DNA of 64,000 bases from Candidatus Spyradenecus sp. (lineage in GTDB: Bacteria > Verrucomicrobiota > Verrucomicrobiia > Opitutales > UBA953): the NCBI GenBank assembly GCA_045535075.1, contig JAZSKX010000018.1, forward strand, positions 256,001 through 320,000, written 5' to 3'. Below are positions 1-64,000 of the stretch, one piece after another (within the stretch, counting starts at the first letter, position 1; every line of letters begins with the position of its first letter). Position numbers and translations under genes: made by a program. Under the pieces are notes generated by a model that did no database searches, was not told the origin of the DNA, and was given only the letters and a program-made list of their open reading frames with translations.

Positions 1-508
1 GATCAAGAACGCCGTTTACAAAGCGATGCGAGTCGTCCGTTGAATAAATTTTTGCCAAATCAATTGCTTCGTTGATTGTTACGATCGGCGGGATATCCGT
101 TCGATAAAGCAATTCGTAAACGGCAAGTCTCAAAATTGCCAAATCGCAACGCGCCATGCGGGAAAGTTCCCAGTTTTGGGTCGCGTCCGAAATAACGCCG
201 TCGATTCGGGCAAGATTTTGTAGCGTTCCCGCAGCAAGCTCTTCCGCGAACGCATAATATTCGCGCGAATTTCCGAGCGAATCCACATCGGCAAACGAAG
301 GTTCGGCCTCCGTATCGCCCTCACGTTCCTTGCCTGCAAATGCTTCCGGAACGGAAAAAAACGCATAAAGTTCGTCGCCAAGGTCGCGGTGAGATTTCGT
401 CGCTTCCCACGCATAAAGAAACTGCATCGCCGCGATTCGATTCTGGCGGCGTTTTGCGGGAACGGGGCGCTCCGCCTGTCCTGCTGTGTTCGTGTTATCA
501 AAAGCCAT
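1..508 (-). CDS. nusB: Transcription antitermination factor NusB (3' end runs off the window; not in the ORF track)
   Basis: Manual translation from the ATG at 508 gives RRQNRIAAMQFLYAWE...NWELSRMARCDLAILRLAVYELLYRTDIPPIVTINEAIDLAKIYS...FVNGVLD. Directly follows ribH. Confidence 0.95.
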   Translation of the reverse strand, partial: MAFDNTNTAGQAERPVPAKRRQNRIAAMQFLYAWEATKSHRDLGDELYAFFSVPEAFAGKEREGDTEAEPSFADVDSLGNSREYYAFAEELAAGTLQNLARIDGVISDATQNWELSRMARCDLAILRLAVYELLYRTDIPPIVTINEAIDLAKIYSTDDSHRFVNGVLD

Positions 509-509
509 G

Positions 510-1118
510 TTAGTTTTTGTGATAAGGGTTGTCGGACGAGCCGAAAAAGTCGTCTTCGTCATCGGTATCATCATCGAGCGAAAAACTTCCGAAAATTTCT
601 TCGTTGCGTTCCCGCTCCATGTCATTGCGGTCGAGTTGTTCCAGATAGTCGGCGAGCCGATTTCCAAGCATCGCCATTTCGAGTGCCGCATTGGCAAATT
701 CCGTCCCGCGGTCATGCTCTCCGAAAACGCGGGCGTCCGCCTGCTCTTCATTTAGCGTAACAATCACGCCGTTGATGACGGGAACCTGCGTTTCAACTGC
801 GATTCTTTGGAATTCAATCGCCGTTGCATTCGCGATGATTTCGTGGTGCGGCGTATCTCCCGCAATGACAACTCCGAGTGCGATAACACAATCGCAATCT
901 CCGGTAAGTGCAAGCATCGACGCAACATAAGGCAACTCGTTGGCGCCGGGGACGCGCGTGAGCGTAATCGCCGAAGCGGGAATTTTCTTTTCGCGAAGTC
1001 GAGCCTGAACACGATCAATCAAATAATCCACATGTTTTTCGTTGTAGCGCGAAGCAACAATAGCGAAACGCAAATCGGAACGAGCCTCTATTTTGTTGGT
1101 AGGTTTGTTTTTGCTCAT
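510..1118 (-). CDS. ribH: 6,7-dimethyl-8-ribityllumazine synthase with acidic C-terminal extension
   Basis: Motifs FAIVASRYN, VPGANELP, ALGVVIAGDTPHHEII, PVINGV; ribH-nusB synteny. Confidence 0.95.
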   Translation of the reverse strand: MSKNKPTNKIEARSDLRFAIVASRYNEKHVDYLIDRVQARLREKKIPASAITLTRVPGANELPYVASMLALTGDCDCVIALGVVIAGDTPHHEIIANATAIEFQRIAVETQVPVINGVIVTLNEEQADARVFGEHDRGTEFANAALEMAMLGNRLADYLEQLDRNDMERERNEEIFGSFSLDDDTDDEDDFFGSSDNPYHKN

Positions 1119-1153
1119 AAAATCGCGAATTGAAAAGAACCGAAAAAAAAGAA

Positions 1154-1426
1154 TTAAGCCGAAGGAATCAGGTGCTGATTACGCTTTCGCCAAGCATCGC
1201 GCCACGCGGCTCGATGATGGGAAATCCAATCGTACGCCGCAGTATCGAAACCGACGTCGCAACCGGCGCGCTCGGAGAGCAACCATTTGTGCCGCAAAAT
1301 CTCCTCGCGTTCCGCTAAGGTTTCCCGGAAAAGACTGGACTGACGGGCAATCAAACGCGTAAGCGATTCCGGCATCTTTCTGCCGGAAAGGCGATCTGCC
1401 TTTTTCTGTTTATTAAACGCGGTCAT
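1154..1426 (-). CDS. Small DUF4032-like protein
   Basis: EEILRHKWLLSERAGCDVGFDTAAYDW matches the HKW..SE.AG.DVG pattern of DUF4032; start uncertain. Confidence 0.7.
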   Translation of the reverse strand: MTAFNKQKKADRLSGRKMPESLTRLIARQSSLFRETLAEREEILRHKWLLSERAGCDVGFDTAAYDWISHHRAAWRDAWRKRNQHLIPSA

Positions 1427-1513
1427 CAGTGAGCGCCATCATGCTCATTCCCGCCGAATTAGCAATCCAAAACCATGAAATCGGCAAGGCAAAATGCGGA
1501 ACTCACTCCGGAT

Positions 1514-2188
1514 TTAACGCACGTTAAAAAGCTTGTGCAACTGCCACCCGGCGCGATACGGCGCTCCGTAGCGGCAAACCCAATCGGCAATTCTCCCGAG
1601 AATTTCCGAATCGCGGGAACGCGACCACTCGGGATGAAGCCAAATCGAGCTCGCGGAATTCTCGCCAAGCGTTCCCGCCCATTCTTCCAACGCATCGGGA
1701 GTATCGACAATGAGCTTAATTTCGTTTGCCCGCGCCCAATTTTCGGCAATCGGCAACTTTTGACGCTTGGGGCTGACGGTAACCCAATCGACGTTCCCGC
1801 GAATCGGAAACGCCCCGCAGGTTTCCAAATGCACGCGCAACCCTCTGGAGTGCAGAGCATCACAAAGCGGAGTCAGATTATGAATCGTCGGCTCGCCGCC
1901 GGTGATAACAACACAATCGGGCTTCGCGGCGGCAGCGGATTCGGCAAGCGATTCGGCAGAAATGCGTTCGACTTCCGCCGCACCGCCGGGCGTCCACGTT
2001 CCCGCAGAATCGCACCACGGGCATTGAACCGGGCAACCGAACAAACGGATAAAAAACGCCGAACGCCCGAGAAATTCACCTTCGCCCTGGAAGCTGTGAA
2101 ACATTTCAAAGACGGGATATTTGAAGTGTTCCGCCGCTTTCAACTCCGAATTCCGAATTCCGAATTCCATGTTCAATGAAGGATTCAT
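1514..2188 (-). CDS. queE: 7-carboxy-7-deazaguanine synthase (radical SAM); start uncertain
   Basis: EMFHSFQGEG, FIRLFGCPVQCPWCD (CxxxCxxC), VVITGGEP, WVTVSPK, QLHK. Confidence 0.93.
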   Translation of the reverse strand: MNPSLNMEFGIRNSELKAAEHFKYPVFEMFHSFQGEGEFLGRSAFFIRLFGCPVQCPWCDSAGTWTPGGAAEVERISAESLAESAAAAKPDCVVITGGEPTIHNLTPLCDALHSRGLRVHLETCGAFPIRGNVDWVTVSPKRQKLPIAENWARANEIKLIVDTPDALEEWAGTLGENSASSIWLHPEWSRSRDSEILGRIADWVCRYGAPYRAGWQLHKLFNVR

Positions 2189-2268
2189 CGCGATTATCTT
2201 GTTTTCTGCTTTTCCTCGGGCGTTTTACCGGAACCCGGTATCCGCTGTTCGAGATTCAAAAACTTTGA

Positions 2269-2697
2269 CTACTTTTCGAAGTACGCAAAGTTTTTGCTGT
2301 CTTCGCCGACGCGAATCGACTTGAGCCAAGCACGTCCGTTCGATTCTTCGCGAATCAAGCCGTCAAAAACATCAAACAAATGAACCGCCAAGCCTTCCGC
2401 CGAACAATTTTTCACGATGTAAGCTTTGAAAAGATGCGGGAACGCCGCCAACATTTTCCGCCCCTCGGTGTCGCTTTCTGCGAAAAGAAACGCATGATCG
2501 AGATTTTCAGCAATCCAGCGCGCAATAAATTTAATCCCGCCGAAATCAATAACAAAGCCTTGGTCGTCAAGCTCGTCGCAGGCAAAAGTCAGCGCAAACG
2601 ACCAATTATGCCCGTGAACGAAGCGGCAGTGCCCGGCGTGGCGGTGTTGCGCATGCCCGATCGGAATATCCGTGTAAATTTTTTCGCAAGTATGCAT
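2269..2697 (-). CDS. queD: 6-carboxytetrahydropterin synthase (PTPS family)
   Basis: GHAQHRHAGHCRFVHGHNW, VIDFG, LDH, SAE; adjacent to queE. Confidence 0.9.
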   Translation of the reverse strand: MHTCEKIYTDIPIGHAQHRHAGHCRFVHGHNWSFALTFACDELDDQGFVIDFGGIKFIARWIAENLDHAFLFAESDTEGRKMLAAFPHLFKAYIVKNCSAEGLAVHLFDVFDGLIREESNGRAWLKSIRVGEDSKNFAYFEK

Positions 2698-62423: not shown

Positions 62424-62455
62424 ATTAAATTTTTCCTGTATTTGCGGTTAATAAA

Positions 62456-62761
62456 TTACCAAGAAGCTTTCGTCACGCCCGGAATTTTACCGTTCGACGC
62501 AAGCTCACGGAAGGTGATGCGGGAAAGTCCGAACTTACCGATATAAGCACGCGGACGTCCCGTGATGCTGCAACGATTGCGGAGACGAATCTTGCTGGAA
62601 TTGCGAGGAAGCTTGTCCAAAGCAACCTGAGCTTTGTAAAATTCTTCGTCGCTCGTTTCAGGATTCGCAATAATAGCCTTAAGCGAAGCACGTTTTTCTG
62701 CGTACTTAGCAACGAGACGCGCACGCTTCAGATTCTTTGCAATGGAAGATTTTTTTGCCAT
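62456..62761 (-). CDS. rpsN: 30S ribosomal protein S14 (long, zinc-independent type)
   Basis: 101 aa; [28 protein letters not shown]; only one Cys. Confidence 0.96.
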
Positions 62762-62775
62762 GACGTTATCCGATA

Positions 62776-63354
62776 TTAGTTGTTAGCAGCATTTTCCGTA
62801 GCACTCTTGGAGGATTTACGGAACGGCATTCCCATGAGGCGGAGGAGCTCACGTCCTTCATCGTCGGTCTTAGCCGTCGTAACAATCGTGATATCCATAC
62901 CGATATTTGCACGTTGCGAACCATCACCCTGCGTTTCCGGGAAGATCGTATGATCGGAAATACCGAGCGAATAGTTCCCGCGACCATCCAAGCGATTGGA
63001 AACCCCACGGAAGTCGCGAATCATCGGCAGCGCAATGTAAATGAGACGTGCGAGGAATTCGTACATAGCGTCGCCTCGAAGCGTAACCATGCAACCAAGC
63101 GGCATTCCTTCACGAACACGGAAATTCGAAACGCTCTTGCGGGCATGAGTTACCACAGGGCGCTGACCGGCAATTTTCGAAATTTCTTTAAGAATTTCAG
63201 CCTGCGCGTTCTTATCGGTGTCAGCAGCATAAGCCGAATTAATGACAACCTTCGTAATTGCAGGAACCTGATGCGGATTGTCGATTTTGAGCGTCTTTTT
63301 GAGCTCCGGAACGACTTTCTCTGCGTAAATTTTCTTCAGAACAGGTGTATGCAT
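62776..63354 (-). CDS. rplE: 50S ribosomal protein L5
   Basis: [31 protein letters not shown]. Confidence 0.97.
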
Positions 63355-63375
63355 TTTCTGATTCTCTCCTGATTA

Positions 63376-63633
63376 TTATTTTGCAGCTCTCTTGGCATCA
63401 TACTTCGAAGCAAGCATCACATTGGAAGCATGAATCGGAGCTTCTTTATCGATAATGCCGCCTTCAACGCCGGCTTGTTCATTTGCCTTTGTGTGGCGTT
63501 TAACAATATTGAGCCCTTCAACAACGACCGTGTTCTTCGACGGGAACACCGCGAGAATCTTTCCGCGTTTACCTTTTTCGGAACCGGAAATAACAACGAC
63601 TTCGTCGTCTTTCTTAAGATTTTGTTTTGCCAT
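63376..63633 (-). CDS. rplX: 50S ribosomal protein L24
   Basis: [18 protein letters not shown] (KOW), [10 protein letters not shown]. Confidence 0.96.
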
Positions 63634-63635
63634 GA

Positions 63636-64000
63636 TTAGAGCACCTCCGGTGCGAGAGAAACGATTTTCATGAATTTCTGGCGGAGTTCACGCGCCACCG
63701 GTCCAAAAATACGGGTTCCGCGCGGATTGCCGTTCCCGTCGAGAATAACGACGGCATTCGAATCGAAGCGAAGATAGCTTCCGTCCGCACGACGAATCGG
63801 AGCTTTCGTCCGAACGACAACGGCCTTAACGACCTTACCCTTCTTGACAGCATCGGGAGCACTCGGAGTCGAATCCTTGACCGCACAAACGATAATATCG
63901 CCGACGGAAGCCGTATCGGTAATCTGCCCGAGACGACGGATCATTTCAACCTGGCGCGCGCCGGTGTTATCGGCAACGTCCAAACGCGATTTAAGTTGTA
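63636..64000 (-). CDS. rplN: 50S ribosomal protein L14 (start just outside the window)
   Basis: [39 protein letters not shown]. Confidence 0.97.

Follow-up and report, generated by a model that had tools for sequence, protein, structure and literature searches.

A hyperabundant, non-palindromic octamer as a candidate DNA-uptake-sequence-like self tag in one genus of uncultured gut Verrucomicrobiota

Why should a single short DNA word recur, on both strands and in every reading frame, throughout a bacterial genome? The question is raised by a stretch of 64,000 nucleotides from Candidatus Spyradenecus sp. (assembly GCA_045535075.1, contig JAZSKX010000018.1, positions 256,001 to 320,000; G000:C5:256001-320000 in our numbering and hereafter the window). 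In this stretch an earlier note, made from the letters alone, had counted about 195 copies of the 7-mer GTTCCCG/CGGGAAC and had proposed a self-DNA signature maintained by biased uptake, or by a methylase- or repair-driven process. The whole assembly, G000, comprises 1,949,087 bp in 18 contigs at ~52% GC. Comparison of this genome with its relatives suggests that the word is kept abundant by a directional process acting in one genus, and on balance we lean toward regarding its 8-mer core, CGTTCCCG, as a third, independent DNA-uptake-sequence-like 'self' tag.

The earlier count was accurate. The window holds 196 copies of the 7-mer, against a mean of 13.53 (sd 3.69, maximum 22) in 100 dinucleotide-preserving shuffles, and the regional tallies given for 1-10 kb (about 38) and for 10-20 kb (about 41) compare with 38 and 42 found. 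The 8-mer core, CGTTCCCG/CGGGAACG, occurs 153 times, and the 10-mer GCGTTCCCGC 51 times where the shuffles gave 0.60 on average and 3 at most; all seven coordinates formerly quoted as examples are in the list of 10-mer matches. Genome-wide, G000 contains 6,528 copies of the 7-mer, 5,159 of the 8-mer (2.65/kb, or ~1 per 380 bp) and 1,614 of the 10-mer, each being the commonest word of its own length, and 6,528 of the 6,921 occurrences of GTTCCC continue with G. Every contig of at least 90 kb carries 2.4-2.9 copies of the 8-mer per kb, which disposes of the possibility that the enrichment is limited to one contig. Markov models of order 0, 1, 2, 3 and 4 predict 69, 183, 268, 587 and 1,401 copies of the 8-mer, respectively, corresponding to 75-, 28-, 19-, 9- and 3.7-fold enrichment. 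The excess vanishes only against maximal-order models (observed/expected about 1.0-1.2); this ratio is uninformative and does not refute the enrichment, because such models are trained on the motif's own sub-words. Within the window, the density of the 7-mer is 3.36/kb at positions 1-44000 and 2.40/kb at positions 44001-64000. Highly constrained genes hold fewer copies; in the genome as a whole, rpoB includes a 3.2-kb stretch without any.

The alignment of all copies in G000 defines a short word with sharp edges. C precedes GTTCCCG in 79% of copies, which makes the 8-mer the core; G stands two bases before GTTCCCG in 46%, and the base after the core is C in 62% and T in 24%, hence (G)CGTTCCCG(C/T). 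The logo is flat beyond 2-3 bases on either side, its information being held within ~11 positions, and the core is not its own reverse complement. The 10-mer consensus of the earlier note is strongly enriched, although the core that bears the information is the 8-mer. Extended words, with 103 copies at k=14, are down to 9 by k=20, an A-run being the sole extended context. Sharp edges and the decay of extended words indicate a short word and not a piece of a longer repeat, so that an explanation by a known repeat family fails; a scan of the window against Rfam matched one tRNA only. The positions of the core are unequal in importance. One-mismatch variants at positions 1, 2, 3 and 5 are themselves enriched 1.4-10-fold, as exemplified by TGTTCCCG (800 copies, 10-fold over the order-1 expectation) and CGCTCCCG (857 copies, 6-fold), and variants at positions 4, 6, 7 and 8 mostly do not exceed expectation (ratios of 0.4-1.8). 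Such graded dependence would be expected of a receptor or other reader in which one sub-site is critical and the flanks are tolerant; it does not resemble the work of an enzyme that repairs single mismatches, by which one specific precursor would be depleted.

Coding constraints do not account for the excess. Genes were approximated by greedy calls of open reading frames (ORFs) of at least 90 amino acids, without a trained gene finder, which gave 1,539 ORFs covering 91% of the genome. As the earlier note had stated, the two orientations are intermixed and all reading frames are occupied: the 8-mer is found in all six, each sense frame holding 306-1,174 copies and each antisense frame 422-1,454, and the peptides described as imprinted by it (VPA, AGT, RER, RSR, AFP and GNA) were confirmed genome-wide. 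At least one 7-mer is present in 1,344 of the 1,539 ORFs. Most 8-mers (4,470 of 5,159, or 87%) lie within ORFs, mostly as single copies, at a density of 2.51/kb versus 4.07/kb between ORFs. Read along the sense strand, ORFs contain 1,841 copies of CGTTCCCG, where within-gene shuffles (20 of each kind) predict 191 +/- 10 when codons are exchanged synonymously and 75 when codon order is shuffled, and 2,639 copies of CGGGAACG, where they predict 320 and 92, respectively. The enrichment thus survives both corrections, at 8-10-fold over synonymous and 25-29-fold over codon-order shuffles. The antisense excess is largely due to giant ORFs of 1,900-4,800 amino acids in which the motif has a single orientation (61:0, 47:0, 37:1, 20:0 and 22:1); these also explain two bins of extreme strand skew. 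The genes concerned are rich in Gly and Thr and are located at G000:C5:125845-140217, C8:185333-198142 and C9:13798-25875, with five more elsewhere, their sense strand reading CGGGAACG.

The earlier note spoke of a signature of the lineage, and comparison with related Opitutales genomes narrows this considerably. The 10-mer reaches 138-3,301 copies in 19 of 19 genomes of the genus, against at most 45 for controls. It is at background in all 62 genomes of four other genera of the family (maximum 64, control 46) and in 16 other families of the order, each represented by one genome. The motif is therefore restricted, among the genomes searched, to one genus of uncultured gut Verrucomicrobiota and does not belong to Opitutales or Verrucomicrobiota as a whole. 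Among the congeners sampled, the most frequent k-mer is one and the same word at 52% GC (G000), 58% (G003, 4.7/kb) and 63% (G018, 3.0/kb), so base composition is not the cause. Four congeners are far poorer, G001, G002 and G013 having ~0.6/kb and G014 less, with the same word and no variant; a different dialect in these genomes is ruled out. In a 60-kb sample of the sister-genus genome G019, the top 8-mer, CGGGTACG, is the reverse complement of CGTACCCG, one base off the motif, but a one-base dialect was also dismissed there, since CGTACCCGC occurs 56 times genome-wide against 36 for the control and the cluster is local. A rooted tree of a single gene (LG+G4, quick method) recovers the genus with a Shimodaira-Hasegawa-like approximate likelihood ratio (SH-aLRT) support of 100. 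It nests the low-density lineages, G014 and the trio G001/G002/G013, within motif-rich clades, with the motif-rich G008/G009 as the earliest branch. These two nested lineages hold 5-20-fold fewer copies. On this one gene's tree, high density looks ancestral and the drive looks to have relaxed twice. Sampled congener DNA also contains local repeats of other kinds, namely AAAGATTAAAG-type words 28-38 times in G013 (L026-L030), CACCACCAACC-type words ~30 times in G014 (L031-L035) and GGTAGGGACGAC 11 times in G019 (L042-L044).

Orthologous DNA gives the direction of change. Over 11.2 kb (window 2248-14700), G000 was aligned with the low-density trio (81% identity) and with the pair G004/G018 (75%). 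Motif sites of G000 are kept at 25 of 41 positions in G018 and 21 of 41 in G004, versus 16% for other 7-mers; motif-rich lineages share 51-68% of their motif sites, a 3-4-fold excess over other 7-mers, and the excess conservation on which the earlier note had staked its proposal is there. The trio, despite its closer kinship, keeps 13-15 of 43 against a background of 24%. Its own sites are mostly common with G000 (13-15 of 17-18), and 12 sites present both in G000 and in G004 or G018 are missing from it; there it usually reads GTCCCCG or another one-base variant. G000 has 12 private sites versus one private absence, and the trio has four clade-private sites. At private sites, other genomes show 'pre-motifs' that differ by one or two bases, and the gain often alters the protein: the amino acid departs from that of most other genomes at 7 of the 12 private sites of G000 and at 7 of the 8 scorable coding sites private to G004 and G018, with changes such as APA to VPA and AGA to AGT. 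New sites in orthologues are therefore lineage-specific and often amino-acid-changing. One site reads GTTCCCG in G000 and G018 and GCGCCCG in G001, G013 and G004, the latter being 95% identical to G018; the two bases that make up the shared GTTCCCG were gained convergently. An identical two-base difference distinguishes G004 from G018 at two more sites, with ordinary flanks. In a codon alignment of a decarboxylase gene (window 13425-14714) from 24 genomes, the 19 congeners have 1-10 sites each in 18 columns, one column being common to 17 of the 19, and none of the five outgroups has a site. These patterns of ongoing, protein-changing gain and excess conservation indicate a directional drive.

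DNA of recent foreign origin carries fewer copies. Motif-free stretches longer than 2.5 kb number 18 in G000, where an exponential spacing model predicts 1.5, and the largest correspond, by Pfam annotation, to two Mu-like prophages, to defence loci and to strongly conserved genes, rpoB among them. Motif density is 0.41-0.53 copies/kb in the prophages versus 2.65 for the genome, a 5-6-fold reduction, and islands of restriction-modification (RM), Hachiman-like, reverse-transcriptase and helicase genes have 0-1.0 copies/kb. In 25 viral contigs with the hairpin pattern described below, which may not be phages of the genus, further motif density is 0-0.34/kb with the seed excluded, and no host-like, motif-rich phage is among them. 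The motif is thus under-represented in recently acquired DNA. As to content, the prophages encode Mu Gam, a MuB-like AAA protein, a terminase, a Mu portal, Gp27 and a tail-fibre-like protein with a YadA head. The islands encode a C5-methylase with an NgoBV-type endonuclease and an AAA_15 ATPase; a type I RM system with an Abi_C protein; HamA with a helicase (Hachiman-like) adjoining HsdM; a 937-aa reverse transcriptase with a T5orf172 protein; and a 1,609-aa DEAD+UvrD helicase.

Neighbouring copies are arranged in a non-random manner. Among those at most 25 nt apart, 208 are convergent and 47 divergent. Convergent pairs most often have a spacer of 12 nt, and abutting pairs, 21 of them genome-wide, make up a second class. 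In all, G000 has 213 convergent pairs, 140 of them outside ORFs, typically laid out as an A-run, GCGTTCCCG, a loop, CGGGAACGC and a T-run. A simple finder of hairpins followed by T-runs, which may count bidirectional sites on both strands, detected an inverted motif pair in 197 of 434 sites outside ORF interiors, and in 193 of 373 with stems of at least 8 bp. The inverted pairs most likely serve as intrinsic terminator stems. Seven inverted pairs lie in the window (Table 1), and the one at 23095..23120 looks like a bidirectional intrinsic terminator. An unrelated hairpin word, CGCCCTGAAAGGGCAAAAGA, is present 12 times in G000 and may represent another type of terminator.

How could such a word be driven? 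G000 encodes a cluster running from PilM to a secretin with tetratricopeptide repeats (TPR), two PilB-like ATPases, PilC, a retraction ATPase of the PilT/PilU family (366 bits, cut-off 319) and six proteins with a prepilin signal, four of them in one cluster, as well as ComEC, DprA and ComM. The pilin-like genes map to a cluster at G000 C1:259103-262562 and to C5:98972-99448, C16:98920-99861 and C2:44956-45810. We infer that uptake would be the process reading the motif. Double-stranded DNA would be drawn from outside by a retractile type IVa pilus through the outer-membrane secretin, and a surface component, most plausibly a pilin, would preferentially bind motif-bearing DNA. One strand would then enter through ComEC and be integrated with the help of DprA, RecA and ComM. 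Motif-bearing alleles, being taken up and recombined more often, would spread by molecular drive wherever the encoded protein tolerates them and would be continually restored after mutation, and inverted pairs would have been co-opted as intrinsic-terminator stems. The model requires exchange within the genus, which mosaic loci make plausible. In the congener locus L056, five segments are 71-82% identical to G000, but identity rises to 95.6% in the valyl-tRNA synthetase gene and to 96.5% in a segment of 909 bp (G000:C11:33823-34731); in L057, a 4.6-kb block at 93.7% lies amid segments at 70-74% and one at 88%. Over the two loci, the valyl-tRNA synthetase gene matches G000 at 94-96%. Neighbouring genes of both loci map to different contigs of G000, and gene order is scrambled. 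Such mosaic identity is compatible with recent homologous exchange in the genus, whatever the route of transfer.

The DNA uptake sequence (DUS) of Neisseria occurs about once per kb, and its minor-pilin receptor ComP is small and basic, with two disulfides. The motif of G000 resembles the DUS in being a short, non-palindromic, hyperabundant word of one clade, found on either strand and in every frame, though with some frames preferred, in forming inverted pairs in terminator-like hairpins, and in coexisting with a type IV pilus with PilT, ComEC and DprA. It differs in its unrelated sequence and phylum, in marking one genus instead of a family and in its density, the 8-mer reaching 2.65/kb in G000 and up to 4.7/kb in a congener. 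It also differs in the missing dialects and in the apparent lack of a ComP-like pilin and of ComEA. The DUS of Neisseriaceae has the consensus GCCGTCTGAA (PMC13020248) and is bound by ComP (PMC3868556). The uptake signal sequence (USS) of Pasteurellaceae has the consensus AAGTGCGGT (PMC13020248), its receptor being still unknown, with the minor pilin ComN predicted (bioRxiv 10.1101/2025.06.16.659825). The DUS is present in up to 37% of terminators and the USS in up to 22% (PMC13020248), and most inverted-repeat copies sit in terminators (bioRxiv 10.1101/2025.10.24.684340). Like the USS, the present motif has a core of graded position importance with weaker flanks, its copies shape protein sequences (compare PMC2817400), and some lineages within its clade show decayed density (compare PMC1626085). 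It lacks the AT-rich flanking segments of the USS and departs from it, again, in phylum and in its higher density. The sequence-level hallmarks of both systems that lend themselves to comparison, namely distribution over strands and frames, clade restriction, terminator pairs and depletion in acquired DNA, are all present.

Several observations weigh against uptake as the cause. Of the genes that the earlier note had associated with it, ComEC is present, ComEA was not found in G000, where the sole HHH_3/TIGR00426 match lies in an 805-aa ORF below the TIGR00426 cut-off, and no ComP-like receptor is evident among the six pilin-like proteins. These have one or two Cys each, and five are acidic (pI 4.3-5.1). 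A search by composition and against solved structures for a ComP-like receptor returned generic pilin features only, a 141-aa pilin resembling solved major pilins via its N-terminal helix alone. ComEC occurs in all 25 genomes examined (G000, 15 congeners and 9 motif-free genomes of other families), and the low-density trio retains the pilin, PilB/PilT/PilC and PilM-Q clusters at 78-86% identity. Uptake genes are thus present regardless of the motif, so no link between motif density and machinery emerges, and none of the pre-chosen loci (ComEC, the secretin and three pilus clusters) tracks density. Most motif-rich genomes have one secretin copy and G001, G002, G004, G012, G013 and G014 have two, without a clean pattern; the usual single secretin is ~980-1,010 aa long with TPR repeats, and the second, ~780-880 aa, is also found in outgroups. 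No dialects were found, either in the low-count congeners or in the sister-genus genome G019. The flanks of sites that differ between G004 and G018 diverge by 6.5% versus 4.8% overall, and no clear recombination tracts are seen. Within the species, near-identical DNA was located in 20 runs from 10 studies, ruminant gut samples among them, and contigs from four studies were aligned to window 1-20000. Among the 40 of 536 differences listed, 39 were single-nucleotide polymorphisms (positions 1-5435), of which one fell in a motif position with 1.05 expected, a comparison without power; none of the 39 creates a motif. Furthermore, any drive that is specific to a sequence and has acted for long would equally leave foreign DNA depleted, sites conserved in excess and gains directional, and the density, 2-3-fold above the figures for DUS and USS, leaves room for a different process.

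Such a process would most naturally be a molecular drive without uptake, in which a protein (a nickase, a mismatch-processing or a recombination factor) biases repair or gene conversion toward CGTTCCCG or its near-matches. We hold this explanation to be rather improbable, and give similarly little credence to the history it entails, an origin at the root of the genus, the rewriting of ~2% of every genome, proteins included, and two relaxations. It would yield sites that are gained directionally, conserved in excess and scarce in recently acquired DNA, and would be at ease with the high density, the missing ComEA and uptake genes that do not follow density; the three steps from GCGCCCG to GTTCCCG between 95%-identical genomes, with their ordinary flanks, could be short-patch events. 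Its difficulty lies with the enzymes, since none of the classes known for such activity is conserved. The C5 methyltransferase family PF00145 is found in 9 of 16 genomes of the genus (8 of 15 congeners and G000, a draw that leaves G016-G018 aside), PF01555 is without a match in G000, G004 and G006, PF02384 is missing from G003, G008, G012 and G018, and PF02086 is present in 10 of 19. Vsr occurs in one of 19, and DndC exceeds its cut-off in none of 19. The placed copies of PF00145, PF02384 and PF02086 in G000 lie in or beside motif-poor mobile islands. None of these DNA methyltransferase families, nor Vsr or DndC, is thus conserved throughout the genus, which contradicts a methylase-, Vsr- or Dnd-linked cause, each of the four families being absent from several motif-rich genomes. 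Single-mismatch repair, moreover, converts one precursor class (~40-550 expected copies) and cannot build ~5,000 8-mers. Prophages residing in the same cell are depleted, though short residence could explain this. HIP1, the highly iterated palindrome GCGATCGC of cyanobacteria, contains methylase sites; its cause is debated and often attributed to a repair- or conversion-type drive specific to the sequence. The present motif has a comparable density, in-gene copies in all frames and a clade-restricted distribution, but it is non-palindromic and has no methyltransferase family conserved alongside it, so that the former label 'HIP-like' suits its abundance only. Of the broader proposal of a self-DNA signature, the directional process stands, given genus restriction, depletion in foreign DNA and excess conservation; the uptake branch is a candidate that fits the sequence-level hallmarks, and the methylase and repair branch is weakened.

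A selected genome-wide recognition site, be it a non-polar Chi-like signal, a self-marker for defence or a nucleoid-protein site, would also be clade-specific, over-represented, conserved at orthologous positions and, as a self-marker, lacking in prophages and islands. Chi sequences differ between taxa, and Chi and KOPS (FtsK-orienting polar sequences), like our motif, are clade-specific, over-represented words of 7-8 letters read by DNA-processing machines; the window itself encodes an FtsK with a gamma domain. Chi and KOPS/AIMS (architecture-imparting sequences) are, however, strongly skewed with the direction of replication and at least 10 times rarer. Judged by local GC skew, 2,216 copies are on the leading and 2,693 on the lagging strand (45:55), and intergenic copies divide 313 to 341; the lack of polarity excludes a signal of the Chi/KOPS type. 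Copy-to-copy distances show the 3-nt codon period only, without helical phasing at 10-11 nt, so that arrays of an architectural protein are not supported. A word that recurs every 380 bp and is imposed on proteins through changes of amino acid far exceeds binding-site systems known so far in copy number, and two nested lineages tolerate 5-20-fold fewer copies. We regard this class of explanation as unlikely. Least credible of all is an ordinary by-product of codon or dipeptide bias, base composition, a repeat family, terminators alone or faulty assembly, even though maximal-order Markov models reproduce the counts, giant Gly/Thr-rich genes hold copies in one orientation and about half of the terminator-like hairpins use the motif. 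Enrichment extends over six frames and intergenic DNA and outlasts codon shuffles; the word is the same at 52-63% GC and at background in 62 sister-genus genomes. Repetitive extragenic palindromes (REP), bacterial interspersed mosaic elements (BIME) and miniature inverted-repeat transposable elements (MITEs) likewise form GC-rich hairpins at gene ends from inverted pairs, but here most copies are single and inside ORFs, nothing is conserved beyond the sharp-edged motif, and only ~213 convergent pairs exist among 6,528 7-mers. An artefact of assembly is at odds with its presence in 19 separate assemblies and in the contigs of the four separate studies aligned to the window. As far as sequence analysis can, these data have already refuted the by-product explanation.

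Should the uptake reading prove true, uptake sequences would have a third, independent case in another phylum, in uncultured gut bacteria and at a density above that of DUS and USS. PMC13020248 and bioRxiv 10.1101/2025.10.24.684340 present uptake sequences as confined to two families of proteobacteria, and no description of the motif, or of uptake sequences in Verrucomicrobiota, was found in the literature, which was covered mostly through titles and the openings of abstracts. Uptake sequences underpin the debate on whether transformation in bacteria amounts to sex, and on how an uptake bias that is purely mechanical can reshape genomes and proteomes. New tests would become possible, on a reader without evident ComP or ComEA, on the amount of protein overwritten and on the rate of decay once the drive stops, the last through the two nested lineages with a fading signal. 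The tag would be an obvious element to include in DNA meant to transform these bacteria. It is, in any case, a strong marker for binning and for telling host from mobile DNA in the genus, and if uptake is not the cause, it points to an unknown genome-shaping process.

Table 1. Location of motif copies, inverted motif pairs and motif-poor regions (window positions unless a G000 contig is given)
Feature	Position	Strand	Remarks
Dispersed motif copies	223..63740	both strands	196 7-mers, 153 8-mers, 51 10-mers; genic and intergenic
Full 10-mer copy GCGTTCCCGC	223..232	+	further copies at 606, 1669, 2711, 3402, 28121, 36811
Abutting pair GTTCCCGCGGGAAC	4651..4664	.	perfect 14-bp palindrome; within coding sequence
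Inverted pair, 7-nt spacer	8966..8986	.	A-run before; at end of ORF 8655-8993
Inverted pair, 12-nt spacer	17051..17076	+	followed by T-run; just 3' of ORF 16209-17018
Inverted pair, 10-nt spacer	21429..21452	+	followed by T-rich run; just 3' of GreA-domain gene 19210-21405
Inverted pair GTTCCCG-12 nt-CGGGAAC	23095..23120	.	A-run before, T-run after; between convergent YoeB-like ORF 22618-23076 (+) and valyl-tRNA synthetase 23143-25863 (-)
Inverted pair, 8-nt spacer	27343..27364	.	A-run before, T's after; between ribosomal protein L9 27388-27954 (-) and tRNA gene 27187-27270 (-)
Abutting pair GTTCCCGCGGGAAC	38248..38261	.	T-run before; just past 3' end of CorA gene 38269-39471 (-)
Ribosomal-protein/RpoA/SecY cluster	54000..64000		lowest 7-mer density of window, 1.60/kb
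Mu-like prophage regions	G000:C16:183461-219000; G000:C8:20790-35415		GC 52-54%, normal
Low-GC, motif-poor defence islands	G000:C12:43000-50000, C12:72000-81000, C9:60000-68000, C2:17000-23500, C5:229513-234342		

Some loci of the window deserve mention in their own right. The YoeB-like ORF beside the pair at 23095..23120 encodes 152 aa with the toxin domain at residues 70-149, and the length of its N-terminal extension suggests that the start was called wrongly or that an antitoxin frame lies upstream. In all four runs, contig depth over the intergenic segment 8990-9561 is raised 2-4-fold, and many contigs break or end loosely there. A 26-nt repeat that includes the motif is present twice, near 9320 and near 9540, and no longer repeat family around its copies was detected genome-wide. 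In the same segment, a minus-strand frame (9196-9510) ends in ...IPEPSMFGLLAGLGALALVGARRRRR, which we take to resemble a PEP-CTERM sorting tail.

The region around ORF 16209-17018 (269 aa, no Pfam match) varies between strains. Directly upstream of it, a 147-bp segment (16040-16186) is enclosed by perfect 19-bp inverted repeats (16021-16039 and 16187-16205) and is inverted in contigs of two other studies (X3, X5); the unit 16021-16205 resembles a phase-variable promoter that switches by inversion. Two studies (X1, X2) have contigs in which four letters stand in place of 1,044 bp (16024-17067) that include the ORF, and the right end of this deletion lies inside the motif hairpin at 17051-17076.

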